A stretch of 64,000 nt of DNA from a bacterium (GCA_021827715.1 JAKAUO010000019.1:3290-67289), one strand, 5' to 3'; positions 27,115 through 63,922 are shown, counted from the first letter of the stretch. The notes: generated by a model from the letters alone, not told the origin. A program made the numbers and translations.

Positions 27115-28803
27115 ATGAAAATAGTACAAAAATGCATATATAGCATTCTCTTTGCGTCATTCTTTGCGGCATCGGCTGATCAAGCAATTCCCCAAAAGCA
27201 TTCCCTTCTTGAGTCGGATTTGGTGATTCAGATTAAAGCTAGTTTCAGTCAATATGATATTCAGCAATGCATGGAAGATATTACCGGACGATACCTGTCT
27301 AACAGCCTTACCATCGACCAATATTTTTCATATGTTGAATACCTATTGGACCATAAAAAAGATTTATTTGTGCCCACTTGCCAAGGCTGGATCTATTTTC
27401 TTCTTAAAGAATTTTATACTGAAAAACAAACGCCTGCTTTATTTACCCAATTATGCAAAAAATATCCTGAATTCCTTGATGCATTTATTAATTTTGCAAT
27501 GAACCAGTTTCCTTTTAGAACTCGCTATACATTGGAAGGAAAAGGTGATCTCTATTTGATGCACATTATACTCGAGCACAAAGATCTGTGTGATTTATTT
27601 TTTTCCAGATTAGGACAAAATACAACCCTTCAAAAAATATATCTTACCCCTTCAATTATTAATGAGTTTTCATCAAAAAAATATTCTCTCGAGCACTTTT
27701 TTGAATCGGCAAAAAAAGAGCTTTTAAAGCCAATTTTACATCTTATTCAAGAACAGAAACGGCTCAAAGAAGAATTCAAAAAAATTGTAAAAAATCATGC
27801 AGAATCAGTTTCTTCATACCATATCAGCAAAGTAGAAAAATATACACGACAAAAGATAAAACAATCTGCTTGCTTTAATCAATTTATAAAAGCGTTACAT
27901 AAAGAAAAAGAACTTACCAAACAAGGATACATCTGTTTTTACCACGGACAAATGCGCGACTACGCTGTGATGTCAGATCTTGGAAATATTCTTTTTAACG
28001 AATTAGTGCAAAAACAAGCACAATCAGATTTTTATTTCATGCAATTTAGAAAAAATGATTTTGACCATGTCAAACAGTCAATAACAGGGCAGAAAAAATT
28101 GCCCGCGATTATCACAGAAATAAAAAATGAACATGCTTCGATGCTTTTTGGAAGAGATTATTATAATGAACGCTACAGACACCCATGGCGACTATCATTA
28201 AATATCTTTGCCTTTGGTAATTGTAATAACTGGGGAAGTAATACTTTCAATTTTGTTGAGACAAATAGCAACATTAATGAAAGTAAAAATATTTTCAAGC
28301 TTACCTGTGATAATTTTAATATTCCAGAGACTATATCTTTAAAATATGAAACAAGAATGCGGGATCTCATTCAAAAGTATACTAATTTATATAGCACCGG
28401 CAGGCTTATTCTCTTTGCTTTCCCTGCAGCAAAGGTCGATACCTATGCCTATATAGCCGAAGTTGGCGCATATCGCTATAAGCCTTACTTAGACAATAGG
28501 TACATAGAGAGCGTCACCGATTTATTGACTGTCGTGCAAAAACAGAATATTCCGTTTTATGACTTAGATTCGCTAGAGTTTGCAACACCGCTTACTCCCG
28601 CAGGAGCCCTCAATCCTTACAGAGGTATCAAGCTCTTTGTCTTTGAAAATGAACAATGCGATAAACAACGTGAACAGCAACTCCATGCAGAACGTCAAAC
28701 GCTGATCAATGATCTCATTGCAGACCTTAAACAGCAGAATCTCTTAAGTGAGTGTCAATGGATAGCCAAAGAATTTGATAAGTTATTGAAGATGTGTGCA
28801 TAG
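27115..28803 (+). CDS. secreted protein of unknown function, paralog A (562 aa)
   Basis: Signal peptide. Shares many blocks with the next gene: KPILHLIQEQK, CFYHGQ, FMQFR, PWRLSLNIF..GN, TGRLILFAFP, AYIA, EFDKLL..CA. Confidence 0.7.
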   Translation: MKIVQKCIYSILFASFFAASADQAIPQKHSLLESDLVIQIKASFSQYDIQQCMEDITGRYLSNSLTIDQYFSYVEYLLDHKKDLFVPTCQGWIYFLLKEFYTEKQTPALFTQLCKKYPEFLDAFINFAMNQFPFRTRYTLEGKGDLYLMHIILEHKDLCDLFFSRLGQNTTLQKIYLTPSIINEFSSKKYSLEHFFESAKKELLKPILHLIQEQKRLKEEFKKIVKNHAESVSSYHISKVEKYTRQKIKQSACFNQFIKALHKEKELTKQGYICFYHGQMRDYAVMSDLGNILFNELVQKQAQSDFYFMQFRKNDFDHVKQSITGQKKLPAIITEIKNEHASMLFGRDYYNERYRHPWRLSLNIFAFGNCNNWGSNTFNFVETNSNINESKNIFKLTCDNFNIPETISLKYETRMRDLIQKYTNLYSTGRLILFAFPAAKVDTYAYIAEVGAYRYKPYLDNRYIESVTDLLTVVQKQNIPFYDLDSLEFATPLTPAGALNPYRGIKLFVFENEQCDKQREQQLHAERQTLINDLIADLKQQNLLSECQWIAKEFDKLLKMCA

Positions 28804-28813
28804 AGACTATTTT

Positions 28814-30535
28814 ATGAAAATAATACAAAAATATTTATGCATAGCCGTCGCTCTCAGCACCTTTACGCTGCTGCCTGACCAGGCAATCAGCCAGAAATAT
28901 CCCTCTCTTGAGCCGGAATTAGTAGCTAAACTTAATGTCACTGATGAATACCTATTAGCCGATTTACTGTGCTACGCATCTCATTCTTATATCGGTTATC
29001 CCATAATAGATATCGACAATTTTATTCCCATCATTACCCATATTTTAAAAAATAATAAAGCCACGTTTATCTCAAGTTGCGCAAAATACAACAGCCATAT
29101 AGTTACTTTATTTTATACTATTCTCTTAGCTGATCAGGCACCGCTAGAAAAAAAATATAAAATTACAGAAGAATTTGGTACTCTTTGCAGTAAGCATAAA
29201 GACTTTTTTGATGCTTTTATCAAACATATCCCCTCAAAACATTTTGCCTATAATACTTCACAACCCAGAGAGCTACTATCTTTCTTATTACAGAATAAAA
29301 ATATCCTAGAGCTTTTTTTAGTTGAAGTTAAAAGCAAAATTAATACTATACACATTAAAAAATTTCTTATCTTAGAATTTTCACGTAAAGAATATCCGCT
29401 CGAGTTCTTTTTTGAAGAAACAAAAAAAGAACTTTTTAAGCCGATTCTCCATCTTATTCAAGAGCAAAAAAAGATCAAAGAACAACTCAATGACTTAATT
29501 CAAAAACAAAATACGCTCTCTTGTTCTCATGCAATCTTAACAAAAAATAATTTTTTGCAAGAAGTTATCAATTCACAAAGCGGTAAGCAATTGCTTCAGG
29601 CCCTGCAAACAGAAAAAAACCTTACCACTAAAAGACATGTCTGTTTTTACCATGCCCAAAGTCGCCATTTTTCGATTGTATCTGATATTGCAAATGCCCT
29701 TTTTTATGCCTTATTACAGAAAAAAGAGTATCCAGATTTCTTTTTTATGCAATTCCGACCACATGATTTCACCACAGTCCAAAAACTCATACGAAAAAAT
29801 ATTGCACAAAATACGGTAATCTCTGATATAAAAAAGGAACATAAAAAGTTACTCAAAGGATGTATTAACGGTGAATTCAGAAAACCTTGGCAACTTTCAT
29901 TGAATTTATTTGTTTTAGGCAATAGCAACCAACCAGGCGCGCAAACCTTTAATTATTTAGAATCCAATTACAATTGCAGCTATCCTCATGATGGGATCAT
30001 TGAAACTATTTTTGAAAATTTTAATATCCCTCGATCAATTTTTGAAAAATATACTATACGTATAAAAGAGTTACAAGAAGAGGCTTGCGATATCTATGCA
30101 ACCGGCCGCCTTATAGTCTTTGCCATTCCTAAAAAAATTGTGAATAACGTTGCCTATATAGCTGGACATGATGTTGATCAAGGACGCTATGACTATAAAG
30201 AAACCCCTTCATTTGATAATAAAAAGATTAAATCTGTTACAAAATTGATTGATTTTGTTAAACAGGGAACATCTCTTAAGGCCCACTTTCCCGTTATTGA
30301 TGAACTTGAATATGTTCTTTCATTAACGCCTGCAAGCGGGCTTAATCCCCATATTGGCATAAAGATGTTTGCTTTTGACGGTGAACCTTTTAATGCTCAT
30401 GCTGCAAAGAAATTAAAAGCGGATACCAATGATCTTGTACAAGCTCTTATTTCCGACTTGCATAAACATAATCTCTTAAAAGAGTGCCGAGCCCTAGCCC
30501 AAGAATTTGATAAGTTATTGGTCGCTTGTGCGTAA
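28814..30535 (+). CDS. secreted protein of unknown function, paralog B (573 aa from MKIIQKYL)
   Basis: Start set at the ATG that parallels paralog A (tattttATGAAAATA in both). Same conserved blocks. Confidence 0.7.
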   Translation: MKIIQKYLCIAVALSTFTLLPDQAISQKYPSLEPELVAKLNVTDEYLLADLLCYASHSYIGYPIIDIDNFIPIITHILKNNKATFISSCAKYNSHIVTLFYTILLADQAPLEKKYKITEEFGTLCSKHKDFFDAFIKHIPSKHFAYNTSQPRELLSFLLQNKNILELFLVEVKSKINTIHIKKFLILEFSRKEYPLEFFFEETKKELFKPILHLIQEQKKIKEQLNDLIQKQNTLSCSHAILTKNNFLQEVINSQSGKQLLQALQTEKNLTTKRHVCFYHAQSRHFSIVSDIANALFYALLQKKEYPDFFFMQFRPHDFTTVQKLIRKNIAQNTVISDIKKEHKKLLKGCINGEFRKPWQLSLNLFVLGNSNQPGAQTFNYLESNYNCSYPHDGIIETIFENFNIPRSIFEKYTIRIKELQEEACDIYATGRLIVFAIPKKIVNNVAYIAGHDVDQGRYDYKETPSFDNKKIKSVTKLIDFVKQGTSLKAHFPVIDELEYVLSLTPASGLNPHIGIKMFAFDGEPFNAHAAKKLKADTNDLVQALISDLHKHNLLKECRALAQEFDKLLVACA

Positions 30536-38708: not shown

Positions 38709-39713
38709 TTAATCAATCCCACGTAAATAGGCAACAGCATCTAAAGCGGCTTTTGCTCCATCACCACTGGCAACGACTGCCTGCCGATAGCGGTCATCTG
38801 TAGCATCACCTGCCGCAAATATACCCTCGACAGATGTTTTTTGACGCTCAAGCAATGTTATGTACCCATACTTATCGCACGCAAGTAAATTTTTAATAAA
38901 ATCTGTTTCAGGTATTTGACCTATCGCCAAAAAAAGTCCCTCTGCATGAATTATTTCATGCGCCAGGGTAGATTTATTAAATATTTTAATACCGGTCATA
39001 CCTGTATCATCACCCAGGATTTCTTCTACCTCAACATCATTGCGGTATGAAATATGATTATAATTTCTTATTTTTTCTTGCATACGAGGGCTTGCTCTAA
39101 ATTCAGCACTGCGCAATAACAGCGTAATACTTTTTGCATATGACGCAAGCTGAAGAGCCTCTTCTATGGCAGAATCGCCACCACCAACAATCACCACATC
39201 TTTACCTTGAGCAAGGGTACAATCACAAACAGCACAGGTTGAAACCCCTTTTCCCCAAAATTCAGACTCTCCCGGTATACCAAGAGTGCGCGGACGTGAA
39301 CCGGTAGCAATTACTATCGCGTCAGCATAATACGTTATTCCTTCACTGGTAATTAAGGTAAAACGAGGACCCTCATCTGCAATAGAAATTGAAACCACGG
39401 CTTCATACACTATTTTCGCACCAAAAGATTCCGCCTGTTGCTCCAAACGATCAATAATAGACATACCATATTGAGGAACCACCCCAGGCATATTTTCTAC
39501 TGTTCCTGCAATAGCCAATTGTCCACCAGGCCGCGGCCCGACAAAAACCAGGGTTGATTCTCCTGAATTACCGCCATATATGCCTGCGGAATAGCCGGCA
39601 ACACCCCCGCCAATCACCGCAAGGCGCGTGCAGATCGCTTGTTTGAAATTATCAGCACTACACAGCAGTGCTGGCATGCCACCCATGATCAAAAGTGTTT
39701 TAAAAAAATTCAT
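38709..39713 (-). CDS. trxB: thioredoxin reductase (low-Mr type), possibly with a hydrophobic N-terminal leader
   Basis: VIGGGVAGYSAG, redox CAVCD, GGGDSAIEEA, AAGDATD. The leader MNFFKTLLIMGGMPALLC depends on start choice. Confidence 0.85.
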   Translation of the reverse strand: MNFFKTLLIMGGMPALLCSADNFKQAICTRLAVIGGGVAGYSAGIYGGNSGESTLVFVGPRPGGQLAIAGTVENMPGVVPQYGMSIIDRLEQQAESFGAKIVYEAVVSISIADEGPRFTLITSEGITYYADAIVIATGSRPRTLGIPGESEFWGKGVSTCAVCDCTLAQGKDVVIVGGGDSAIEEALQLASYAKSITLLLRSAEFRASPRMQEKIRNYNHISYRNDVEVEEILGDDTGMTGIKIFNKSTLAHEIIHAEGLFLAIGQIPETDFIKNLLACDKYGYITLLERQKTSVEGIFAAGDATDDRYRQAVVASGDGAKAALDAVAYLRGID

Positions 39714-39716
39714 AGA

Positions 39717-41162
39717 TTACTCAGTTATAAAACGACTTGCAAAATCAAAAAATTCTCGCTTGGTCATTACGTCATTATAGCGCCCAACTACCAACCCATC
39801 TTTTATAACGACAAAATAAGGAACTGTCGTAACACGGTAACGGTCCTTAAGTTCGGCCATTTTCTCTATATCTACTTTAACACATACTAATTTATCTTTC
39901 AGCTGTGTACCAATAGCTTGAATATAAGGCATTATTTGCAAGCATGAAGAACAAAATTTAGTATAAAAATCGATAATAACAGGAACCTTGCTTTCTAGTA
40001 CAACGCTTTTAAATTGATCCATAGATTCAATGGCAGTAATTTCAATCAGATTAGTAGCAACAACGGGATCATACAATTTCCGCTCAATTTTTTTAGCAAA
40101 AATTTCATCAAAACCGATACGTTGTAAAAATCTTTCAGCATCCAAAGCCGCCTTAACCCCATCACCACTGGCAACAGCCGCTTGGCGGTAACGTTCATCT
40201 GAAACATCCCCTGCAGCAAAAACACCTTCTTGTGACGTCTCTTGAGTTCGACATGAATGCGCAATATATCCTAAAGGCGTAAACGCTATCTGTCCCTTAA
40301 AAAGCTCGGTATTAGGCTTATGCCCTATAGCTAAAAATACACCATCAATAGGCATATGGTCAGAACCTTGGGCTGTTTTAAGTTTTATACCCGTTACACG
40401 CGATCCATCACCCTCTATTTCAGTAATAGAGGTGTTATACCTAATTTTTATGTAATCAAATTTCTTAAGACGATCCTGCATGGCAACTGAAGCGCGCATT
40501 TTATCTCCGCGGACCAGAAGGGTAATGTGTCGAGCATATGCAGTAAGCTGTAGGGCCTGTTCCGCTGCCGAATCACCTCCTCCTACCACGACCACATCTT
40601 TATCCTTGAAGAATGCCGCATCGCAAATAGCACACGCAGTTACCCCTTTGCCCCAGTGTTCTACTTCCCCTGGTACATCTTTTAGACGCTCAGGAAAAGC
40701 TCCGGTGGAAATGATTACCGATAAGGCATGCACTTGGGAATCCTCAGAAGTGACAAGTTGATACGGCCAGACAGAAAAATCTACTTTTTTTATACTTTCA
40801 TTCACCAGCACCGCCCCAAAATGCTGTGCTTGCTCTTGCACCGCTTTAATAATTTCAGGACCCTGTTTTTTGCCCATACCTGGCCAATTTTCTACTTCAC
40901 TGGTGCTCATAAGCTGTCCTCCAGCTTGCGGACCTTGGAAAACCACCGTATGCAAATGGGCCCGGGAGGTATATAATGCCGCGCTTAAACCCGCTGGCCC
41001 TGAACCGATAATGGCAACGGGAATAATATTTTTAGAGCCTTCCACCCTTTTCCAATCATAGGTTCCCGCCGGTGGCGTTTTCCCGGTAAAGCCATACCAA
41101 TAAAGTCCGCCGCACACCAAAAGCCCCAGAGTAAGCCCTAAAAAAACTGAATAAATCTTCAT
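39717..41162 (-). CDS. membrane-anchored thioredoxin reductase fused to a C-terminal thioredoxin domain
   Basis: N-terminal TM (VFLGLTLGLLVCGGLYWYG) with no internal ATG before the Rossmann motif IIGSGPAG. CAICD, GGGDSAAEQA. C-terminal Trx fold with FCSSC and cis-Pro TVPYF. Confidence 0.8.
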   Translation of the reverse strand: MKIYSVFLGLTLGLLVCGGLYWYGFTGKTPPAGTYDWKRVEGSKNIIPVAIIGSGPAGLSAALYTSRAHLHTVVFQGPQAGGQLMSTSEVENWPGMGKKQGPEIIKAVQEQAQHFGAVLVNESIKKVDFSVWPYQLVTSEDSQVHALSVIISTGAFPERLKDVPGEVEHWGKGVTACAICDAAFFKDKDVVVVGGGDSAAEQALQLTAYARHITLLVRGDKMRASVAMQDRLKKFDYIKIRYNTSITEIEGDGSRVTGIKLKTAQGSDHMPIDGVFLAIGHKPNTELFKGQIAFTPLGYIAHSCRTQETSQEGVFAAGDVSDERYRQAAVASGDGVKAALDAERFLQRIGFDEIFAKKIERKLYDPVVATNLIEITAIESMDQFKSVVLESKVPVIIDFYTKFCSSCLQIMPYIQAIGTQLKDKLVCVKVDIEKMAELKDRYRVTTVPYFVVIKDGLVVGRYNDVMTKREFFDFASRFITE

Positions 41163-41263: not shown

Positions 41264-43570
41264 ATGAATATAAAAAAATTTCTTATACTGATTTTATCAG
41301 TGTTTTCATTCACTACAGCCTCGCTCAAGCCAGAAGCTCCCGTTCAAGCAATAACGCTTGAAAACTCGCAGGAAATTCAACAAGAAGCCGCGCTTCAGGA
41401 AGACGAATTAATTTCCATTTGTCAACAAATACAAAAGGAGTGCTCTAAGCAAATCGATTTTTTAACCTCTATTTTGCAGCAAACAATTGGGTCTGTTCAA
41501 AAGGGTTCTATTAAAGCATCGCTTGATAAAAAAGCACTTTCACAAAAATTGTATGAGTACATAAGTCTTATGCATCTTTTGCAGGGCATGAGTGTAATGA
41601 CCGCCAATCATGAAACATTGATGCAAGTAACGGTTATCTTAAAAAATGTGATAGATAGACTGACGGTTGCTTTTGACGCGCAACTTACCATTCTTGAGGT
41701 TCCTGATATTGAAGACCTTTTGGTTACCGATAAAAACTTCACCCCTACTTTTGAGTACCTTTTTAAGCTTCTTACAAAAAATGAGAGGCGTCTTAATGAA
41801 CTTGTTCTTAAAAGCACTTCATTAGGGTTAACTACTATCAATAAGACTATTAGGTCCTTAGAAAATTTTTGTCAAAACTACAAATGGCCGCTTTTTATGG
41901 CTGGTTGCGCTGGCGCCGGGCTTATGTTTTATCAATGGCAAAAAATGCCCTTGACTATTGAGTCTCCTAATCAGACTAATGGTTCCTGGCTGTATGATAT
42001 CATAAAGAACCACTCGCCTAGTTTTGATTCTGCAGCTTTGACTGTAGCAGTAGTAAGTGGTTTATTTAAAGATCAGCTAACCCTCGTGGGTAATTACGTC
42101 GTAAATACAGCATATAAATCGATTACAAAAAAATATAACAAAATAAAAACATTTTGTGCTGAAAGTTATGATGTCTTAAAAGGCATAAATAATGTCAAGC
42201 GCGAAGGGCTTGCAACATCTCTTGATAACGTACCCGATCTTGATGACGAATCTCTGATTGGGCTAGAAGATCAAAAAAAGGAACTTTATAAAATTTTAGA
42301 GTATCTCGGGGACCCAGAACTGTATATCCGCTCAGATAATGAAATTGCTAAATGCATTATGGCAATAGGACCTTCACGATGCGGAAAAACAGCCTTGATT
42401 AAAGCACTTGGTGCAACTATCAATAAACATTATGAAGAAGTCGGTTCAAGCCTAAAAATTAAATTTATTGAGATTAATTATCTCATGATTAATTCTGCGC
42501 CCGGCATGCTCCAAGAAATCATTGAATATGCCAAAGCAAGTGCCCCATGCATATTATTTATTGATGAGATTCATCTTCTTGGGTTGCAAAAAACCGGAGA
42601 TAAAGGACTTCTTAATGATTTCTTAACACAACTTACTGAATTACATAAAATTAAAGATCCATTAAAACAAGTATTTATTATTGCAGCAACAAATCACCCT
42701 GAGCTTCTTGCGCCGGAACTCTTTAAACATGAACGTTTTGGTAAGGTGATCAGGTTTAAAAAACCGGGCATTACCGAACGTGCAAACTTCTTCTTATCAA
42801 GCTTTAAAAAGTATGGAATTAACCCTGAAGTAATTGATTTAAAAAGTATTGTTCTACAAACAAAAGAATGTGATTTTGGTCATCTTCAGCAAATTATTAA
42901 AGATGCCCGTTTTGAAGCGCGTGCCCGTGGACAAGGCGTAAATCAAGAACATTTACAGCGTGCTATAAATTCTCTTGTTCATGGATTGAATTCAACGGCA
43001 GAATTAAGTAAAGAAGAAACCCTTATTGCAGCCATTGACCAGGCAGGAAAAATCGTTACTCATTATGCCTTGGGCATTCATGAAACAATTCATCTTGCAA
43101 CGATAAATAAAGTTGATGGTAAAATTGAAGAAGATATCTTGTGGATCTCCGACAAAAAAGACACTGAGGTTATTCCTGCGCGTTATGGAACTATTATCTC
43201 TACTTCTAACCGTGAGGAAATTCCTTTTTCAGATGCAATCGAACTTGAAAAACTGTGTAAGCGCTATCTTTCTGGAATAGCGGCCCAGCAAATAATCTTA
43301 GGAACGTACTATATCGATTATACCGCACAAGATTATAGAAATGCTTTTGATATTGCCCAAAAAATAGTTCTCAAGGGATTAACACTTAAAACACTCCCTC
43401 CTGAGCAGCAAGATCGAATATTTCAAGAAACGCAAAAGCTGATGACTCAATTCGAAGCAGAAATACTGGAACTGCTGAAAACTCAGAAATCACTCATTGA
43501 AAAACTCGTTAAGGAGCTGATCAAAGACCGTTGCTTAACTGGAAAAGATATTGAAAGTATAGTACAATAA
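41264..43570 (+). CDS. FtsH-like membrane AAA+ protein with an inactivated M41 peptidase domain
   Basis: Walker A GPSRCGKT, Walker B APCILFIDEIH, IIAATNHPELLAPELF. E. coli FtsH has AYHEAGHA where this protein has AIDQAGKIV, and the downstream AEE is AQQ, so no zinc ligands remain. Confidence 0.8.
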   Translation: MNIKKFLILILSVFSFTTASLKPEAPVQAITLENSQEIQQEAALQEDELISICQQIQKECSKQIDFLTSILQQTIGSVQKGSIKASLDKKALSQKLYEYISLMHLLQGMSVMTANHETLMQVTVILKNVIDRLTVAFDAQLTILEVPDIEDLLVTDKNFTPTFEYLFKLLTKNERRLNELVLKSTSLGLTTINKTIRSLENFCQNYKWPLFMAGCAGAGLMFYQWQKMPLTIESPNQTNGSWLYDIIKNHSPSFDSAALTVAVVSGLFKDQLTLVGNYVVNTAYKSITKKYNKIKTFCAESYDVLKGINNVKREGLATSLDNVPDLDDESLIGLEDQKKELYKILEYLGDPELYIRSDNEIAKCIMAIGPSRCGKTALIKALGATINKHYEEVGSSLKIKFIEINYLMINSAPGMLQEIIEYAKASAPCILFIDEIHLLGLQKTGDKGLLNDFLTQLTELHKIKDPLKQVFIIAATNHPELLAPELFKHERFGKVIRFKKPGITERANFFLSSFKKYGINPEVIDLKSIVLQTKECDFGHLQQIIKDARFEARARGQGVNQEHLQRAINSLVHGLNSTAELSKEETLIAAIDQAGKIVTHYALGIHETIHLATINKVDGKIEEDILWISDKKDTEVIPARYGTIISTSNREEIPFSDAIELEKLCKRYLSGIAAQQIILGTYYIDYTAQDYRNAFDIAQKIVLKGLTLKTLPPEQQDRIFQETQKLMTQFEAEILELLKTQKSLIEKLVKELIKDRCLTGKDIESIVQ

Positions 43571-43609
43571 GAGGCAATCACCGCTTGTTTAATTTTTTAA
43601 GGAATTTAC

Positions 43610-44881
43610 ATGAAGAAATTATTTTTAATTGCATTGGCTTTTTGCCTGAGTCTCTCATATTTTTGCTTTGGAGAATCGCAGCAAGCAGTAGATAAAGTAT
43701 ATAAGCAGCAGCAGGATTTTGTCATAAGTCTTCTTAAGCAATGCAAAGAGCGGCAGACTCAAAAGGCCGCTCGTGAATCGCTTGAAACATTAAGCGGCTT
43801 TCTTAAACAATTTCCTTCTGCGCTTGAATGTGTTATTGATACCTTTCAAGTCTGTCTCGATCACAACTGTAAGGATATTCCGGCACATGTTACTAAATGC
43901 ATAGACAACTTTAGAGCAACCTCTGCAAATAAAGACTTCATGGATTACCCTGATATTCATATGGTGCAGCCGAAATTAAATGCTTTAATAATCTGTTACT
44001 TTAATTTTCAACTCAGCCCACTCGGCGCAGTTGATCATTATGGCCAGAGTTTTTTACAAAGAACTAATCTTGATACCTATCTTTCACTTGCTCAACCTAT
44101 TATTACCTTTATAGGAATTTATGCATTATTAAGCTATAGCATTAATTACTTGAACAACACTTTTGAAATAAACTATAAGCATGACAAAAACCCTTTCTTG
44201 CAAGAGGCAACATCAACTACTTTTAAGGCAATTACAGCAAGCCTTTTCGTACCGGAAATACGTCCAAGTCTTGAGAGAACCCAAAAGTATATTAAAGAAA
44301 CTTTCAGCAAAAACTACGCCCAAATTATTAATAAAAATCGCAAATCGGGTTATCCTGCAAAACCAGCAAAAGAATCATTTAGCACCATTAAAGGTTACGG
44401 TGACACTAAATTACTGCTCACGCCGTATATCGATTTTTGCGCCCATTTGACTGAATACAGATCTGCAGATTTAAGAATAGCACGCGGGATTTTACTTGAA
44501 GGTGATTTAGCCGATGGAAGAAGAATTGCTCAAGCCTTTGCCGGTGAAATAACTCAAAAATACAAATCACTCGGATCCAGCACGCAATGTCTTGTCTATG
44601 AAATTCATGGCTCATCTTTGGTTGATAAGAAATTGGATAAGGTCCTTGAAGAATGCTTAGAATTCGCCCCCTGCGTATTGATTATTAATAACCTTGATTG
44701 GGTATACAAGCAAAAAGATGTTGCCCCTGAAGTATATGCTCATATTATTAATAAGCTCAACCGCTACTTGGCTCAAGATAGCAATTTCCCTGTTACTATT
44801 TTTGCTACCTCTCAAGATCACACCGTTTTGGACCCAGTGCTTCTTGAATTTAATAAGTTTGAAGTGATTCCACTCGCTTAA
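43610..44881 (+). CDS. FtsH/AAA-like paralog with degenerate Walker A and B motifs and no peptidase domain
   Basis: RGILLEGDLADGRRIAQAFAGE (vs GPPGTGKT), APCVLIINNLD (vs IFIDEID), IFATSQDHTVLDPVLL. Signal/TM, periplasmic domain and TM topology like the upstream gene. Confidence 0.6.
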   Translation: MKKLFLIALAFCLSLSYFCFGESQQAVDKVYKQQQDFVISLLKQCKERQTQKAARESLETLSGFLKQFPSALECVIDTFQVCLDHNCKDIPAHVTKCIDNFRATSANKDFMDYPDIHMVQPKLNALIICYFNFQLSPLGAVDHYGQSFLQRTNLDTYLSLAQPIITFIGIYALLSYSINYLNNTFEINYKHDKNPFLQEATSTTFKAITASLFVPEIRPSLERTQKYIKETFSKNYAQIINKNRKSGYPAKPAKESFSTIKGYGDTKLLLTPYIDFCAHLTEYRSADLRIARGILLEGDLADGRRIAQAFAGEITQKYKSLGSSTQCLVYEIHGSSLVDKKLDKVLEECLEFAPCVLIINNLDWVYKQKDVAPEVYAHIINKLNRYLAQDSNFPVTIFATSQDHTVLDPVLLEFNKFEVIPLA

Positions 44882-52793: not shown

Positions 52794-54248
52794 TTAATTT
52801 TGCAAAGTACGCTCAAGTTCTTGCAAAATATGTTCAAGCTGACTGTCATTCTTTTTATGGGCATCAATTTTTTCGTAAGCATGTAACACGGTCGAATGAT
52901 CCTTTCTTGATAAGAATGCACCAATTTCCTTCAGAGACCTATCCGTATGCTTTTTCATCAAATAAAAGGCAATATGTCGCGCCTTTGATAGTTCCTTATC
53001 TCGCTTTTCAGAGCGCAATTCTGCAAGCGTTACATTAAAATGATTCATTACTGATCGCACCACTTTGGGTAAATCAAGCGCCTGACGTGATTGATAGGAC
53101 GAATTCTTAAAAAGAACTTTATCCACAAGTTCTTGTGTAATAGGCTGCCTTGTCAATGAAGCACAGGCAAGAACACGAATAAGAGCGCCCTCTAATTCGC
53201 GAATACTGGACGTTGCAGACTGTGCAATACATTCTGCAATCGCATCAGTAATAACTTCATTATGCATTTCCGCTTTCTTTTTTAAAATGGCAATCTTTGT
53301 TTCCAAGGTTGGCATACAAATATCAGCAACTAGTCCCCATTCTAATCGAGAACGCATCCGCTGCGCTAAACCGGCAATATCGCCAGGCAACGCATCACTG
53401 GTGCATACAATTTGTTTTTGTGTTTGATGCAAGGTATTAAAAATATGAAAAAAAGCCTCTTGCGTCTGCTCTTTATGAGAAATAAATTGAATATCATCCA
53501 TTAAAAGAACATCTATATTTTTATATTTTGCTTCAAAAATATGCGTTTTATTAAATCGAATAGCATGAATAAATTCTTGTACAAAACGATCTGCAGTTTG
53601 ATATACAATAATCGCTTTTTTATTATTTTTTTTAATGGCATGGCCTATAGCATGCAAAAGGTGTGTTTTGCCCAAACCTGAAGGCCCATACATAAAAAAT
53701 GGATTATAGAGTATTCCAGGCTTTTCAGCAGCAGCTACTGCGGCAGCATAAGCAAGAGAATTACTCGGGCCCACCACAAAAGTATCAAATGTGTAGATTT
53801 CATGGAACATGGCACGGGCAGATGACTTTTCATTGCTTCTTACAACGGTACGAATTGAACCTTTTACTAATTCATGTCTTGAATGGCCCGTACTATGGGC
53901 CGTAGTGTGCGACACTGAAATGGGCTGAAGACCCGGAATAACCTGCGCAGGGATTATCGTTGGCGCACAATCTTCGTGCTTTTTTGATGATTCTTGAGGC
54001 ATACTATCAACAAATTGAATAGTAATTGTTTGTTCGCCTAAAAGACGTGCTAAATGTTTCTGCAAAAGAGGCAGATAATGTTTAACGATCCAATCTTTAA
54101 TAAAGTGATTCGGCGCCTTTAAATAGATGATTTTCTTATGCGTATCCCAAAAAAGACATGATATGGCCTTAAACCACGTTTCAACAACGGGGCTGCCTGC
54201 CTCTTCACGCGCAATAGCTAAAAATTCACGCCAAATCTGGTTGACCAC
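52794..54248 (-). CDS. dnaA: chromosomal replication initiator DnaA
   Basis: GPSGLGKTHLLHAIG, LLMDDIQF, IRELEGAL, HSTVLHAYEKI. GTG start with an AAGAGG RBS. Confidence 0.93.
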   Translation of the reverse strand: MVNQIWREFLAIAREEAGSPVVETWFKAISCLFWDTHKKIIYLKAPNHFIKDWIVKHYLPLLQKHLARLLGEQTITIQFVDSMPQESSKKHEDCAPTIIPAQVIPGLQPISVSHTTAHSTGHSRHELVKGSIRTVVRSNEKSSARAMFHEIYTFDTFVVGPSNSLAYAAAVAAAEKPGILYNPFFMYGPSGLGKTHLLHAIGHAIKKNNKKAIIVYQTADRFVQEFIHAIRFNKTHIFEAKYKNIDVLLMDDIQFISHKEQTQEAFFHIFNTLHQTQKQIVCTSDALPGDIAGLAQRMRSRLEWGLVADICMPTLETKIAILKKKAEMHNEVITDAIAECIAQSATSSIRELEGALIRVLACASLTRQPITQELVDKVLFKNSSYQSRQALDLPKVVRSVMNHFNVTLAELRSEKRDKELSKARHIAFYLMKKHTDRSLKEIGAFLSRKDHSTVLHAYEKIDAHKKNDSQLEHILQELERTLQN

Positions 54249-57468: not shown

Positions 57469-58269
57469 ATGTTAAAACAATTTATTCTTACCCTATTGTG
57501 TTTATGTACTATACAAAACCTTTCAGCGGTCAGCAAAAAAGAGATTGAAACCATTGGTCAAAAAATTTGGCAGAATGAAGCAAAATGCGAAGAAGAACTT
57601 CTTGTATTTTGGAACAAAAATGAATCGTTCCCTTCATTGGGCATTGGCCATAATATCTGGTTTCCCGAAGGTTGGCTTACAAAAAATCCTGATGTGAGAT
57701 TTACAGAAAGTTTTCCCCTACTATGTAATTATTTAGAAAAAAATAAGGTGGTTCTTCCTGCTTGGTTAAAAAAAGCAAAAAATAGTGGCGCTCCCTGGAA
57801 ATCTCGTGAAGACTTTTATAAAGACGAACAACGGTTACAAGAATTACGGACTCTTTTGGTAAAAACTACCGCATTACAAGCTCATTATATGATCGACCGG
57901 CTTGAAGAAAAATTACCAAAAATTATAGAAAAAGCGCCTATCAGTCAACGAAAAAAAATAAGTAAAAATATTACTTTGATGCGATCAACGTTTTTAGGAA
58001 CCTACGCATTAGTCGATTATCTCAATTTTAAAGGCGATGGACTTAATTCAAGAGAAGCAACTAAAGGTCAAGGGTGGGGATTACTTGCCGTATTACTTGA
58101 TATGCCAGACAATCTGAATAAAAATAATGTAACGAAAGCGTTCACGGTATCAGCAGCAAAAAAACTTATAACCCGCATTGAAAATTCGGCACCCTATTAT
58201 GCACCTCTAGTGTTTTTTGAAGGCTGGATGAAACGAATAAGCACCTATAGTGAAGAAAAAGCATGTTAA
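57469..58269 (+). CDS. hypothetical secreted protein (266 aa), probably co-transcribed with the GH3 gene
   Basis: aaggag RBS and signal peptide. 20-nt overlap with the downstream GH3 gene. Confidence 0.5.
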   Translation: MLKQFILTLLCLCTIQNLSAVSKKEIETIGQKIWQNEAKCEEELLVFWNKNESFPSLGIGHNIWFPEGWLTKNPDVRFTESFPLLCNYLEKNKVVLPAWLKKAKNSGAPWKSREDFYKDEQRLQELRTLLVKTTALQAHYMIDRLEEKLPKIIEKAPISQRKKISKNITLMRSTFLGTYALVDYLNFKGDGLNSREATKGQGWGLLAVLLDMPDNLNKNNVTKAFTVSAAKKLITRIENSAPYYAPLVFFEGWMKRISTYSEEKAC

Positions 58270-59920
58270 AAAAAGTTTTTATTTTACTGCCTACTTTGCT
58301 ATAAGCACTCTTGTTGCACAGCAAGCACTAGATCCAGAAAAAACGCTTGAGCAATTAACACTGCGCGAAAAAATTGGTCAACTGTTTATGGTAGCTGCAG
58401 CATCAAATTTTAATGCGCCGACAGAACAACTTGCAAGCTTAATGCAAACATGCCCCTATACGATGGAACAGGACCATGTCATGAAAATGATCACCGACCA
58501 TCATGTTGGTGGCGTTATCTTTTTATATAAAAGTGATCCTATAACCCAAATGACACTTACCCAAAAATTTCAAGATGTTGCACAAGTACCGCTCCTTATA
58601 GCACAAGACAGCGAATGGGGCTTAAGTATGCGTTTGGATAATGATCCTACAAAAGTTGTCCGCTATCCTCGCGCTATGACACTCGGTGCTCTTCATGATA
58701 GACAAAAAATATATGATGTTGGCTATGAAATCGGGAAACAGTGTGCCGCTATTGGCGTACATATGAACCTAGCACCCGTTGCTGATATCAACAATAATAG
58801 ACGGAACCCTGTCATACATGATCGTTCTTTTGGTAACAATCCATTAAAAGTCGCCCAGAGAGCAGCACTTTTTGCTAAGGGATTACAAGATGCTGGTGTT
58901 CTTGCGTGTGCAAAACATTTTCCTGGGCACGGTGACACAGAAGTTGATTCACATCTGGATTTGCCGGTTATTAAACATAATCGCGAACGTTTTAAAACAA
59001 CTGAGTTACTACCCTTTCAACACGTGGCGCATCAACGCATTGATGCAATTATGCATGCACATATTTGTGTGCCTGCACTCGATGCAACAGGAAAACCATC
59101 AAGCCTATCGTACCCTATTGTTACCGGACTTCTTAAAAAAGAACTTAACTTTAATGGTCTTTCCATTACTGATGGTCTAGGTATGGATGCTGTGCGCAAA
59201 AATTATGCATCAGGTCAACTTGAACTTGAAGCATTTTTAGCAGGCAATGATTTGTTGCTTTGTCCACTTGATGTTCCCCAAGCCATGCAGAACATTGAAC
59301 AAGCTATTACCCATGGCGACGTTGATGAAGATGACCTAAATCAACGTGTACTTAAAATATTAAAAGCCAAAGCACGAGCTTTTGCACAGAGCAAAGCTTA
59401 CTTTTTTCAAGAAGCGCAAGCTTATCTTATACGTCCGCAGGCGTATGAACTTCAAAAAGATTTGTATCGCTCTGCCATTACATTGCTTACCTATAATAAT
59501 CAACTCCATTTTGATACCAACTTTTTTGATGAAAGCTGTATCATTCAAATAGGCGCACTCCCCGAAGACTATTTCAAAAATAGTTGCAGACACTATGGCA
59601 AAAAAGTTATTACCGGCTCAGTTTTACCTGAAGCTGCAGCAGATCATGATACGGTTGTTATTGCCATTGGCGACATGAATAAATTTGTTGATAAACAATT
59701 CGGTATTACTGACACACTGCTTGATGACATCAAACAATTAAAGAAAATTGGTAAAAAAGTTATTGTAGCTCTTTTTGGTACGCCGTATAGCATTCCCTTA
59801 TTTAAAGATGTCGATGCAATTATTGAAGCATATGAAGATGTACCGGTAGCCCAAGAGGCAGTTGTTGATACACTTCGTGGCATACTCAAACCAACAGGGA
59901 CATTGCCGATAATGCTTTAA
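58250..59920 (+). CDS. secreted glycoside hydrolase family 3 (NagZ-like beta-N-acetylhexosaminidase) with a C-terminal alpha/beta domain
   Basis: KHFPGHGDTEVDSHLDLP, SDSEWGL-like AQDSEWGL, ITDGLGM. GTG start and signal peptide. Confidence 0.85.
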   Translation: MKKKHVKKSFYFTAYFAISTLVAQQALDPEKTLEQLTLREKIGQLFMVAAASNFNAPTEQLASLMQTCPYTMEQDHVMKMITDHHVGGVIFLYKSDPITQMTLTQKFQDVAQVPLLIAQDSEWGLSMRLDNDPTKVVRYPRAMTLGALHDRQKIYDVGYEIGKQCAAIGVHMNLAPVADINNNRRNPVIHDRSFGNNPLKVAQRAALFAKGLQDAGVLACAKHFPGHGDTEVDSHLDLPVIKHNRERFKTTELLPFQHVAHQRIDAIMHAHICVPALDATGKPSSLSYPIVTGLLKKELNFNGLSITDGLGMDAVRKNYASGQLELEAFLAGNDLLLCPLDVPQAMQNIEQAITHGDVDEDDLNQRVLKILKAKARAFAQSKAYFFQEAQAYLIRPQAYELQKDLYRSAITLLTYNNQLHFDTNFFDESCIIQIGALPEDYFKNSCRHYGKKVITGSVLPEAAADHDTVVIAIGDMNKFVDKQFGITDTLLDDIKQLKKIGKKVIVALFGTPYSIPLFKDVDAIIEAYEDVPVAQEAVVDTLRGILKPTGTLPIML

Positions 59921-61545: not shown

Positions 61546-62280
61546 TCAGATCTTTACAAAATAGGCCAAGAACTCTTTGTTCCCCGATCCTCCAAGAATG
61601 GGCGATTCGGTAACACCCTTCAATTCAAAACCTATCGTCTGAATTGCATCGCAGACAGAAATAACCGCTTTCTGTTGAATCGCGCTGTCTTTGATAACAC
61701 CCTGATACCGCTGCGCGATCTCAAGACCAACTTCAAATTGCGGCTTAATAAGTGCAATAAGTATACCACCTGGCTTTAGAAGTTGGGCGGCTTGAATCAT
61801 AACTTTAGTAAGAGAGATAAATGAAAGATCCAACGTCATGCAATCTATGATGTCTGCAAGCACCGGCACCTGGCGAATATCTGTATTTTCCATAACAACA
61901 ACACGTATATCAGTAGATATCTTTGGATGCACCTGAGCGGTACCTACATCTATGCCGTATACTTTGCAAGCGCCATAGTACAATAAACAATCAGTAAACC
62001 CGCCGGTAGATAACCCCGCATCAAGACAAACAAGATCTTTTACCAGAATATTAAATTCTTTTAAAGCATGTTCAAGCTTAAGCCCCGAACGTGCAACAAA
62101 TTTTAATGCAGCAAGGTTTATTTCGATCGAGCAATCGAATGGAGCCAACAGACTACTTTGTGTGCAAATTTTTCCCTGCAATATTACTGAACCCTGCTCA
62201 ATAAGCTCTTGAATTTTAGAGCGCGATAATGAAGGGTATCGCGCTTGTATAAGTTTATCTAACCGTATTTTATGCACCAC
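61546..62280 (-). CDS. tlyA: TlyA-family rRNA 2'-O-methyltransferase (S4 + FtsJ domains)
   Basis: RLDKLI...SRSKIQELIEQGSVILQGK (S4) and LDAGLSTGGFTDCLL (SAM motif). Confidence 0.85.
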   Translation of the reverse strand: MVHKIRLDKLIQARYPSLSRSKIQELIEQGSVILQGKICTQSSLLAPFDCSIEINLAALKFVARSGLKLEHALKEFNILVKDLVCLDAGLSTGGFTDCLLYYGACKVYGIDVGTAQVHPKISTDIRVVVMENTDIRQVPVLADIIDCMTLDLSFISLTKVMIQAAQLLKPGGILIALIKPQFEVGLEIAQRYQGVIKDSAIQQKAVISVCDAIQTIGFELKGVTESPILGGSGNKEFLAYFVKI

Positions 62281-63922
62281 GAGCTTTTCTATCCTCTAAC
62301 ATAAGCTGTTGAGTAAATGGCGTTATCGTGTAAAAGAGCATACGGGAAAGCTTACTTTCATCTTCCAACATTTTTTTAAACGGAAGCGCTACAAATCTAT
62401 TTTCTGATGTTTTTATAGTCACATGATCCATACCGACACTTTTTCTGAACGCTTTGCGCACATCATGCAGATCTTTAATCGGCTCACCATTAATCTCAGA
62501 AATAATTTGCCCCCGCATTAATACAAAAGAGCGCAGTGCCGCAGAATCGGGCAATATATGTGCAAGCACCACAGCAGGCTCAAATTGATTTTTAAAATCA
62601 CCATATTTTGCAAGATGTGGGGCTGATTGAATAAGCTGAGGAATATGATCCAATGCTAAATCCATAAGCACCATACCACCGAATAACTCATAATCTATTT
62701 TTTCATACGGTGGAAATTTTTGGCGAACCGCGGGTAAATCGCATTGATTAAATACAAAGGATAGATTTACTGGTTTTCCTTGACGATACACGGTGACATG
62801 TATTTTATCACCCAGCATTAAACGGGAAATATAATCCACAATCGATACCTTATCTTCGCACCACGGAACATTCATTTCACCAAAGATATCTAAAGAATGG
62901 CCGTCGATACTGTAAATCATATCTCCAGCTTTTACGCCTGCCTTTTCCAACGGACTATTTTTATAGGTTTCAATAACATACAAACCACCCGGTAATGGAT
63001 TATTGAGAAACTTGGTAAGACTTTCACTTGCAGGATTAAAATGAACTCCTAAAAATGGCTTGCGCAAGAAAGTAATATTTGAAAAATCACCACAATGTAC
63101 CTGTTCAGCATGCCGCAAAAACTGAGTTACCTCATTACTTGGTATAATATAATTAACATTTTGGGCTGCAGCTGCAGCGAACCCTGCGGTATTAACCCCC
63201 ACCACACGAGCATCCTGGTTTAATGATGGGCCACCCGAGTTTCCCGGATTTATAGGAGCACTAATTTGAATCATATAATGGCCATCAATATGTTCGCGCC
63301 CACTAACCACGCCGGTGGTACTTTTCAACGATTGTTGCCCCAAAGGATAGCCCAATGTCATAATTTCATCAGAACGTCTTACTGCATCTGAGTCTCCAAA
63401 TCTTAAGTAAGGGACTTGTCCCAATGTCTCTTTAACGCGTTCGAGCGATTCTGAGGTTAAGCGGACCAGCGCAAGGTCCCGGTCAGGGTTTAATGCGATT
63501 ATGTCAGCTGCAAGACGCTGCTTGCCCATACTAGGGATTTGAACCTCGACTGCCACCGAACCGTTAATCACGTGAAAATTAGTAATAAATGATCCTTGTT
63601 CATCAATAAAAAACCCGCTTCCGGTAGCAAGTCCCTGTTGCGGAGTTTTATAAGGTTCAAGCCAATTGAATTCGATCTTTTGTACCCACACTTGAACAAC
63701 CGTGTCTTTTACTAATGGTTGAATATCCGACCAGCGCTTACTGACATCCGATGAACTTCCTGCTGGTAATTGCGCTTTTTCAGCACTCTCTTTAGGGTGC
63801 ATATGAGATTTAATTTTTTCAAAAAGATCGGCATAATAAGCGCGGTCCTGCTTATTTTGATAGACAAAAAAAAGTAAGCCGCCGGTAAGTAAGACAACAA
63901 GTGCTAAAAGCAATCTTTTCAT
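62270..63922 (-). CDS. HtrA/DegP-like periplasmic serine protease with PDZ region
   Basis: TM/signal. Triad contexts TNFHVI, DLALVRL, GNSGGP. PDZ-like GDMIYSIDG. Confidence 0.85.
   Translation of the reverse strand: MKRLLLALVVLLTGGLLFFVYQNKQDRAYYADLFEKIKSHMHPKESAEKAQLPAGSSSDVSKRWSDIQPLVKDTVVQVWVQKIEFNWLEPYKTPQQGLATGSGFFIDEQGSFITNFHVINGSVAVEVQIPSMGKQRLAADIIALNPDRDLALVRLTSESLERVKETLGQVPYLRFGDSDAVRRSDEIMTLGYPLGQQSLKSTTGVVSGREHIDGHYMIQISAPINPGNSGGPSLNQDARVVGVNTAGFAAAAAQNVNYIIPSNEVTQFLRHAEQVHCGDFSNITFLRKPFLGVHFNPASESLTKFLNNPLPGGLYVIETYKNSPLEKAGVKAGDMIYSIDGHSLDIFGEMNVPWCEDKVSIVDYISRLMLGDKIHVTVYRQGKPVNLSFVFNQCDLPAVRQKFPPYEKIDYELFGGMVLMDLALDHIPQLIQSAPHLAKYGDFKNQFEPAVVLAHILPDSAALRSFVLMRGQIISEINGEPIKDLHDVRKAFRKSVGMDHVTIKTSENRFVALPFKKMLEDESKLSRMLFYTITPFTQQLMLEDRKARGA

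Follow-up and report, generated by a model that had tools for sequence, protein, structure and literature searches.

A tandem pair of FtsH-related genes in the Dependentiae: a predicted protease-dead ATPase and a predicted inert paralog

What might a membrane-anchored relative of FtsH do once its protease site has been lost, and why should it be followed by a paralog whose ATP site has been lost as well? The question is raised by two adjacent genes in a 64,000-nucleotide (nt) stretch of DNA (GCA_021827715.1 JAKAUO010000019.1:3290-67289; below, the window) from a Dependentiae (Babeliaceae-like) bacterium. An earlier interpretation made from the letters alone (below, the sequence-only reading) had placed an FtsH-like pair of open reading frames (ORFs) between positions 41,264 and 44,881, and had proposed that they encode a membrane pulling or translocation motor. 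Both ORFs were found exactly there: gene 1 at 41264..43570 (+), encoding 768 amino acids (aa), and gene 2 at 43610..44881 (+), encoding 423 aa and starting 39 nt after gene 1. Taken together, our analyses place the two genes in a large, conserved and undescribed family that probably uses ATP for something other than protein degradation.

A predicted protease-dead ATPase and its family

Gene 1 has a Pfam AAA match at residues 366–499 (E 5e-20), and its match to Peptidase_M41 (PF01434) remains under threshold (E 0.026; 14.8 bits vs a gathering score of 29.9). Ten of 25 gene 1 family members do reach that Pfam family, the best with an E of 2e-12. The NCBIfam FtsH model TIGR01241 was not reached (92 bits vs a cutoff of 600). 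In a PDB sequence search the AAA domain by itself was closest to p97/NVL, and T. thermophilus FtsH (2dhr) aligned with residues 319–767, which make up the entire cytoplasmic part. Profile–profile alignment (hhalign) of the gene 1 family with canonical FtsH gave a probability of 100% (E 6e-58) over 559 columns. An AlphaFold model of gene 1, built from 53 input sequences (pLDDT 84.6, pTM 0.77), had FtsH, YME1, AFG3L2 and Ycf2–FtsHi chains as its best PDB matches in a fold search, over ~460–500 columns and with target-normalised TM-scores of at most 0.80. These profile alignments and fold searches, together with the paralogy of the two AAA domains described below, uphold the FtsH ancestry that had been claimed for both genes.

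The ATPase motifs of gene 1 are intact (Walker A GPSRCGKT at residues 369–376, Walker B ILFIDEIH at 430–437, sensor-1 N477, and R491), and FtsH alignments place DQAGK (592–596) in the column of HEAGH and AAQQ (673–676) in that of AAEE. The domain searches and FtsH alignment that the sequence-only reading had suggested thus recovered AAA and confirmed the loss of the zinc ligands, in agreement with its description of an ATPase-competent, protease-dead protein, as gene 1 is predicted to be.

The same pattern was evident in a census of 147 full-length family members aligned with canonical FtsH. The Walker A Lys is present in 146 of the 147, the Walker B Asp-Glu and the sensor-1 Asn in 142 each, and the arginine finger, equivalent to what we take to be R315 in E. 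coli FtsH numbering, in 146. The column equivalent to R312 holds Gln in 64 members, Arg in 31 and Lys in 22. At the zinc site the catalytic Glu is found in a single member and Gln in 87, with the first His kept in 110, the second His in 62 and the Asp-ligand column in 113. HQAGH, a natural Glu-to-Gln version of the site, is the commonest form in the family, and the DQAGK of the window is a further-decayed form of its own clade, in which both zinc-binding His have been lost. The sole member with an intact motif, P0224, carries VHEAGHAI alongside the family N-terminal domain and may be a basal, still proteolytic member.

An HExxH string does occur elsewhere in gene 1, an outcome that the sequence-only reading had set against its own claim: HETIH, at residues 606–610 (43079..43093, +). 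It is not an active site. As a relocated active site it was rejected, since it aligns opposite FtsH 'TDPVH', in the β-strand after the active-site helix (model strand 607–617). The second His of HETIH is the conserved His of FtsH 'PVHKVTI', and the string is found only in P0001–P0009, being absent from P0010–P0012 and from every distant member. HETIH in gene 1 is a chance HExxH string.

The pore loops have been shortened across the family. The pore-loop 1 segment has 4–6 residues in 135 of the 147 census members vs 10 in FtsH, the pore-loop 2 segment has 10–11 residues in 131 members vs 18, and the spacing from Walker A to strand β2 is 23–24 residues in 115 members vs 12. In gene 1 the remnant of pore-loop 1 is NYLMINSAPG (residues 405–414; 42476..42505, +), where FtsH FVGVGA is deleted and hhalign leaves a 6-residue gap. 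No conserved aromatic is left in the pore loops of the family, and the MDGF inter-subunit motif has been lost family-wide.

These deletions bear on the role put forward in the sequence-only reading, in which gene 1 and gene 2 form a heteromeric ring acting as a membrane pulling or translocation motor, like the chloroplast Ycf2–FtsHi import motor. An FtsH-derived pseudo-protease with an intact ATPase site would suit such a motor, Ycf2–FtsHi chains are among the best structural matches, and the genes are adjacent, probably co-transcribed and both strongly constrained. However, both pore loops carry deletions throughout the family, so that no conserved aromatic could hold a chain, whereas plant FtsHi1 keeps its loop length. 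The loss of the loops argues against a pulling motor, as do the patchy occurrence and the reduced AAA domain of gene 2 (below), and we consider such a motor quite unlikely.

Upstream of its ATPase, gene 1 begins with a signal-peptide-like hydrophobic N-terminus (MNIKKFLILILSVFSFTTASL, residues 1–21; 41264..41326, +; Kyte–Doolittle peak 1.66), and a hydrophobic N-terminus is also present in the aligned family members. It is followed by an all-helical, family-specific domain (residues 34–205; 41363..41878, +), predicted to be extracytoplasmic and modelled with a pLDDT of ~90, which has no Pfam match. No match to FtsH_ext (PF06480) was found in gene 1, and the N-terminal domain is a helical bundle unrelated to the periplasmic domain of FtsH. 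A putative single transmembrane (TM) helix (WPLFMAGCAGAGLMFYQW, residues 208–225; 41885..41938, +) corresponds to a model helix at 209–227; its hydropathy is weak (<1.2), and a Gly/Ala-rich hydrophobic segment fills this column throughout the aligned family. The linker (residues 226–330; 41939..42253, +) is poorly constrained, with low pLDDT at 228–269, and ends in a conserved LKG...TLDDxxLIGLE lead-in to the AAA, in which G307 and G333 are invariant. The AAA module, comprising large subdomain and lid as delimited by Pfam and alignments (residues 331–580; 42254..43003, +), contains the arginine finger R491. The pseudo-M41 domain (residues 581–768; 43004..43567, +) has DQAGK for HEAGH and Q675 for the Glu of AEE, and keeps D690 in the Asp-ligand column.

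To gauge the extent of the family, we searched by two routes. A word-indexed search returned ~25 full-length relatives of gene 1, and an exhaustive profile search with residues 24–326 extended this to at least 364 clusters (50% identity), of which 227 had E ≤ 1e-10. With few exceptions the clusters are 750–950 aa long and have the domain at the same position, so the N-terminal domain is bound to one architecture. The named relatives are Candidatus Babeliaceae, Babeliales or Dependentiae metagenome-assembled genomes (MAGs), and the gene 1 family is found in Dependentiae wherever the source names the organism. A GTDB scan with one narrow Walker B pattern, which returned mostly canonical FtsH and is no proper census, shows presence in Dependentiae/Babeliales MAGs. 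Two sequences carry other labels: P0008, a family member, is labelled 'Sphagnum balticum', and L012, a locus with the TrxR–gene 1 arrangement described below, 'uncultured Pseudomonadota'. Both are probably mis-assigned Dependentiae DNA.

Our literature search returned no relevant paper linking Dependentiae or TM6 with FtsH or AAA, and none on a bacterial family of this kind, in line with the statement in the sequence-only reading that no characterised bacterial equivalent was known to it. Reviews of FtsH evolution treat FtsHi pseudo-proteases in plastids only (PMC9020784, PMC8197885). In Deeg et al. 2019, 'M41' appears in the list of proteinases secreted by Chromulinavorax (PMC6561590); the entry may stand for this family, read as an active protease. 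The family calls for a correction of annotation, as its members are now labelled 'ATP-dependent Zn protease', 'cell division protease FtsH' or, possibly, 'secreted M41 proteinase'.

Since catalytic motifs have been lost in both genes and gene 2 is truncated, one or both might be functionless, decaying remnants of FtsH. We computed dN/dS against the sister genome L008 (92% protein identity). Values for whole genes were 0.088 for gene 1 and 0.090 for gene 2, with 0.061 for a neighbouring TrxR-Trx fusion and 0.107 for PGK. By region, we obtained 0.027 for the AAA module of gene 1, 0.039 for its pseudo-M41 domain, 0.05 for its N-terminal part (residues 1–230) and 0.069 for the dead AAA of gene 2; constraint was relaxed only in the gene 1 linker (residues 231–330; 0.40). 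Gene 1 and gene 2 are under strong purifying selection. With a dN/dS of ~0.09, level with that of PGK, they are not pseudogenes, and their 'dead' domains, at 0.04–0.07, are constrained as well. At least 364 clusters of gene 1 and 15 homologs of gene 2 with invariant blocks were found, and the reading frames of both genes are unbroken in every genome examined. We regard decay as refuted. The sequence-only reading had itself allowed that gene 2 might be a pseudogene and the pair a peculiarity of one genome; neither proved to be the case, as the pair is conserved in loci of other genomes. Conservation at the level of housekeeping genes suggests that the family is important for Dependentiae biology, and if so it could serve as a marker and be studied functionally in the few isolates that have been cultured.

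Strong constraint on a dead protease domain could also be expected if gene 1, with or without gene 2, were a regulatory or structural subunit, or a substrate adaptor, of a canonical active FtsH encoded elsewhere. Mixed assemblies have precedents in the mixed FtsH rings of organelles and in FtsH12 with FtsHi. The M41 fold, which is the base of the hexamer in FtsH, is retained with a dN/dS of 0.039; many members keep the zinc ligands around Gln (HQAGH), like a natural substrate-trap variant; and an M41 peptidase is listed for Chromulinavorax (PMC6561590). However, a tblastn search of the 64-kb window found no canonical ftsH, and none was tied to these genomes; the 11-residue insertion after the Walker A helix, the pore-loop deletions and the loss of MDGF would make mixed rings irregular; and the N-terminal domain is unrelated to the periplasmic domain of FtsH, with no PF06480 match. 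A subunit of a canonical FtsH seems to us a rather doubtful role for gene 1.

Two other FtsH-like sequences were considered and set aside. P0086 was rejected as the canonical ftsH of these genomes because it lies in a tilS-hpt-ftsH-hsp33 context, which we take to be of Firmicutes type. P0110 (760 aa; L089 8001–10283) is FtsH-like, with an intact HESGH, a long N-terminal region and no aromatic-x-Gly pore motif, and has its Walker A at the same position as the family. As an active family member it was rejected as unrelated, since its N-terminus is not similar to that of the family and its gene is located in a TIR/restriction defence island.

The tandem paralog and a possible mechanism

Gene 2 is a tandem paralog that is predicted to be catalytically inert. 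Behind a signal-like N-terminus it has a helical domain containing Cys; a putative TM segment and a linker then lead to its AAA domain, of which only the large subdomain is present. The helical domain (residues 24–151; 43679..44062, +), again predicted to be extracytoplasmic, has Cys at positions 45, 74, 82, 87 and 97, of which C82 and C87 are nearly invariant. The putative TM helix (residues 160–182; 44087..44155, +) corresponds to a low-confidence model helix at 162–185. The N-termini of both proteins resemble cleavable signal peptides, and the second hydrophobic segment, which stays below 1.2 in gene 1, reaches 1.57 (Kyte–Doolittle) in gene 2; we infer the membrane topology of both proteins from these segments.

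The AAA large subdomain of gene 2 (residues 261–423; 44390..44878, +) matches Pfam AAA at 28.9 bits, over the gathering score, and its motifs are degenerate: the P-loop reads GDLADGRR (298–305), Walker B reads IINNLD (358–363, with N360–N361), the sensor-1 region reads ATSQD, and K416 stands in the arginine-finger column. R304, in the column of the Walker A Lys, is invariant within the clade, and the arginine-finger column is variable (K, S, M or R). The alignments and the model agree with the sequence-only reading that both Walker motifs are dead and that the peptidase domain is absent. The model also stops right after strand β5, which indicates that the lid is missing besides the M41 domain. 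Its C-terminal domain superposes on the ATPase domain of T. thermophilus FtsH at ~2.7–2.9 Å over ~185 columns. Just ahead of the dead AAA, at residues 244–257 (window positions 44339–44380), we observed a basic motif, RKSGYPAKPSKESF, that is nearly invariant in the Babeliaceae-type partner and absent from the L004 partner.

The AAA domains of the two genes are paralogous (hhalign 98.8%, E 6e-17) and have in common the family-specific insertion after the Walker A helix. The related N-termini described in the sequence-only reading could not be recovered, as no relationship was detected between the N-terminal domains (hhalign probability ≤12%), both of which are helical. Gene 2 is thus a tandem duplicate of a gene-1-like ancestor, cut down to an inert AAA large subdomain on a putative anchor of its own. 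The 39-nt spacer between the genes (43571..43609, +) has a Shine–Dalgarno-like AAGGAA at 43599–43604, 7 nt before the gene 2 start, and no terminator was found in it; promoter and terminator scans were at chance level. The two genes are probably co-transcribed.

To assess how widely the partner occurs, we compared related loci from other genomes. Homologs of gene 2 fall into 15 clusters (41–92% identity), share their contigs with gene 1 homologs and have long invariant blocks that include the altered P-loop. The partner follows gene 1 in L001, L003, L004/L005, L008, L009, L010 and L014. It is missing from L011, L012 and L020, where gene 1 is followed by RpiB and/or FtsX-permease genes, and in L006 and L007 unrelated signal-peptide ORFs take its place. 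All partners have the family insertion and pore-loop deletions, pointing to duplication inside the family. The alignments show that partners decay differently lineage by lineage: the L004 partner (576 aa) still has a lid and the Arg, together with GPLDTSKS and an intact Walker B (VVLDEID); the L014 partner has lost P-loop and Walker B and kept Arg and lid; and the Babeliaceae-type partner is without a lid, reads G.LADGR[KR] at the P-loop, and has an NN-like Walker B and a Lys in place of the Arg. The partners thus provide a graded series of paralogs at different stages of losing nucleotide binding. On this distribution gene 1 is the core element, and gene 2 an accessory present in some lineages and strongly conserved in its own clade. 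With the partner missing in several lineages and no lid in gene 2, the family as a whole is unlikely to depend on an obligate heteromeric ring, and the proposed analogy to a Ycf2–FtsHi hetero-hexamer is not supported. The same absences, and the Lys in the arginine-finger column of gene 2, count against the pulling motor.

The explanation that we favour, and to which we would give about an even chance, is that gene 1 forms a ring acting as an ATP-driven switch that neither cleaves nor threads proteins, with gene 2 as a silent subunit. Like FtsH, gene 1 would build a ring, held together by its AAA and pseudo-M41 domains, and would hydrolyse ATP without degrading or threading polypeptides: the absence of pore loops would preclude threading, and the absence of the Glu would preclude cleavage. 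Its nucleotide cycle would serve as a conformational switch that the membrane helix relays to the extracytoplasmic helical domain, or alternatively would govern the binding and release of partner membrane proteins. Either way, gene 1 would serve the cell envelope as an assembly or scaffolding factor that degrades nothing. Gene 2, in the Babeliaceae-like clade, would use its AAA large subdomain to bind the gene 1 ATPase, as a regulatory or structural subunit that is itself catalytically silent, and would contribute a second extracytoplasmic module.

Several observations weigh against this explanation. R312 of E. coli FtsH is a second Arg important in FtsH, and the equivalent column is Gln, Lys or another residue in most family members, so that hydrolysis could be slow or need a partner. 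The putative TM segment of gene 1 has low hydrophobicity. In many members His-His-Asp survives around the Gln (HQAGH), so that the pseudo-M41 domain could bind zinc or peptide, which would fit the holding of substrates better than a pure switch. No canonical FtsH could be tied to these genomes, the window scan included, and the synteny described in the next section may reflect a conserved near-origin backbone instead of function. Ring assembly, ATPase activity, membrane insertion and the interaction of gene 1 with gene 2 are all predictions.

Genomic neighbourhood of the pair

Divergently upstream of gene 1 lies a TrxR-Trx fusion recognised by Pfam (39717..41162, −; 481 aa) with an N-terminal hydrophobic anchor. 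A TrxR-Trx fusion is also found divergently upstream of the gene 1 homolog in L001, L003–L015 and L020; L002 is cut short on that side. Downstream of the pair is an FtsX/MacB-type permease, which in the related loci examined is mostly accompanied by RpiB and PGK. The gene dnaA is at 52794–54248 (−), ~8 kb downstream of the pair, and also lies within ~8 kb in L001 and L006. Its proximity suggests that the region is probably near the replication origin, with gene order kept in the related loci examined. We considered a possible functional link of the pair to the TrxR-Trx fusion, the FtsX-type permease, RpiB or PGK; since the whole region near dnaA is collinear, we did not count conserved adjacency as function.

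The neighbourhood also bears on whether the proteins could be exported effectors, taken out by their signal peptides to act on the host where ATP is available. Their N-termini are signal-peptide-like and gene 1 has a weak second hydrophobic segment; Dependentiae are intracellular parasites, 44% of proteins have signal sequences, and 'M41' is named among secreted proteinases (PMC6561590). However, in all the related loci that we examined gene 1 has conserved housekeeping genes around it and lies near dnaA, a hydrophobic segment stands at the FtsH-like position before the AAA across the family (clearly so in gene 2), and divergence is slow and uniform, unlike that of typical effectors. We judge export to the host very improbable. 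The neighbourhood is housekeeping in content, and we found no mobile-element or defence context around the pair. An anti-phage defence AAA was likewise rejected, since only generic AAA similarity came up (IetA with E 4e-14; IteA with 42 bits vs a cutoff of 510), in PADLOC too.

Several further features of the window were observed. A second TrxR-like gene (38709–39713, −), confined to the Babeliaceae-like clade, has a signal-like N-terminus; its product and that of 39717–41162 may be flavoprotein reductases that are membrane-anchored or exported, which would be unusual. An ATP-dependent DNA ligase (16454–18208, −) with DNA_ligase_A_N, _M and _C domains is encoded in this bacterial genome, a domain set that we presume to be associated with the archaeal/eukaryotic type. 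No Pfam family matched, at E ≤ 1e-5, either of two large overlapping ORFs at 27115–28803 (+; 562 aa) and 28796–30535 (+; 579 aa). A DegP/HtrA-type serine protease with PDZ domains (62270–63922, −) and a family 3 glycoside hydrolase (58250–59920, +) are ordinary envelope content.

Comparison with known systems

Like FtsH, gene 1 has an N-terminal hydrophobic segment and, as predicted, an extracytoplasmic domain, then a putative membrane segment followed by a classic-clade AAA and an M41 fold. Unlike FtsH, its family lacks the catalytic Glu, and its own clade the His ligands too; the pore loops are shortened and MDGF is lost; an 11-residue insertion follows the Walker A helix and ~23 residues are deleted from the M41 domain; and the all-helical N-terminal domain of ~170 residues is unrelated to FtsH_ext. 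Gene 2 departs further, with the AAA fold present, its motifs dead and the M41 domain absent. The family thus offers a natural experiment in what the FtsH scaffold can do without degradation and threading.

The plastid FtsHi proteins are similar in that gene 1 is FtsH-derived, has lost HEXXH, keeps its ATPase motifs, is predicted to be membrane-bound and is accompanied by paralogs, and chains of the Ycf2–FtsHi entries 8xku and 8xqw are among the best fold matches of the models. However, plastid FtsHi1 (P0111) has canonical spacing, a full-length pore loop (VLVGVGSA), LDGF and RPGRFDR, and none of the indels of the family. Gene 1 is 22% identical to FtsHi1, no higher than to bacterial FtsH. As FtsHi1 lacks the family indels, we read the gene 1 family as a separate lineage and its likeness to FtsHi as convergent: it is apparently an independent FtsH-derived lineage and not a plastid FtsHi ortholog, in a comparison based on one FtsHi sequence (P0111) and an alignment without a tree. 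The Ycf2–FtsHi complex differs too, in that the partner here is optional across the family and has neither lid nor M41 domain, and no Ycf2-like giant subunit was found in the neighbourhood of the pair. The family represents a second lineage of FtsH pseudo-proteases, bacterial and apparently independent of plastids, conserved across a barely studied phylum of intracellular parasites. It goes beyond plastid FtsHi in having its pore loops removed too.

In rings such as p97 D1 and NSF D2, AAA modules without a pore-loop aromatic serve assembly or conformational control and not translocation. The pore loops of the gene 1 family likewise have no conserved aromatic; the difference is that p97 and NSF are double-ring proteins with a second, threading ring, whereas gene 1 has a single AAA module.

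For gene 2, the closest parallel in arrangement is Torsin with LAP1/LULL1, in which an active AAA+ is joined by a membrane-anchored, nucleotide-free AAA-like partner that supplies the arginine finger Torsin lacks. Gene 2, too, is predicted to be membrane-anchored, has the AAA large subdomain only and no usual ATP site, and stands beside an ATPase-competent relative. Gene 1, by contrast, keeps its own Arg (R491; 146 of the 147 members) and gene 2 has K416, and compartment and ancestry differ. Speculatively, and with only a modest chance of being right, a single-ring FtsH descendant without proteolysis or threading could constitute a new functional class, one that would drive conformational change by ATP across the inner membrane into a periplasmic helical domain. 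It might be a core envelope factor of a whole phylum of obligate intracellular parasites, governed in one clade by a Torsin/LAP1-like inert paralog with a possibly redox-sensitive Cys module and a possible link to the TrxR-Trx fusion.

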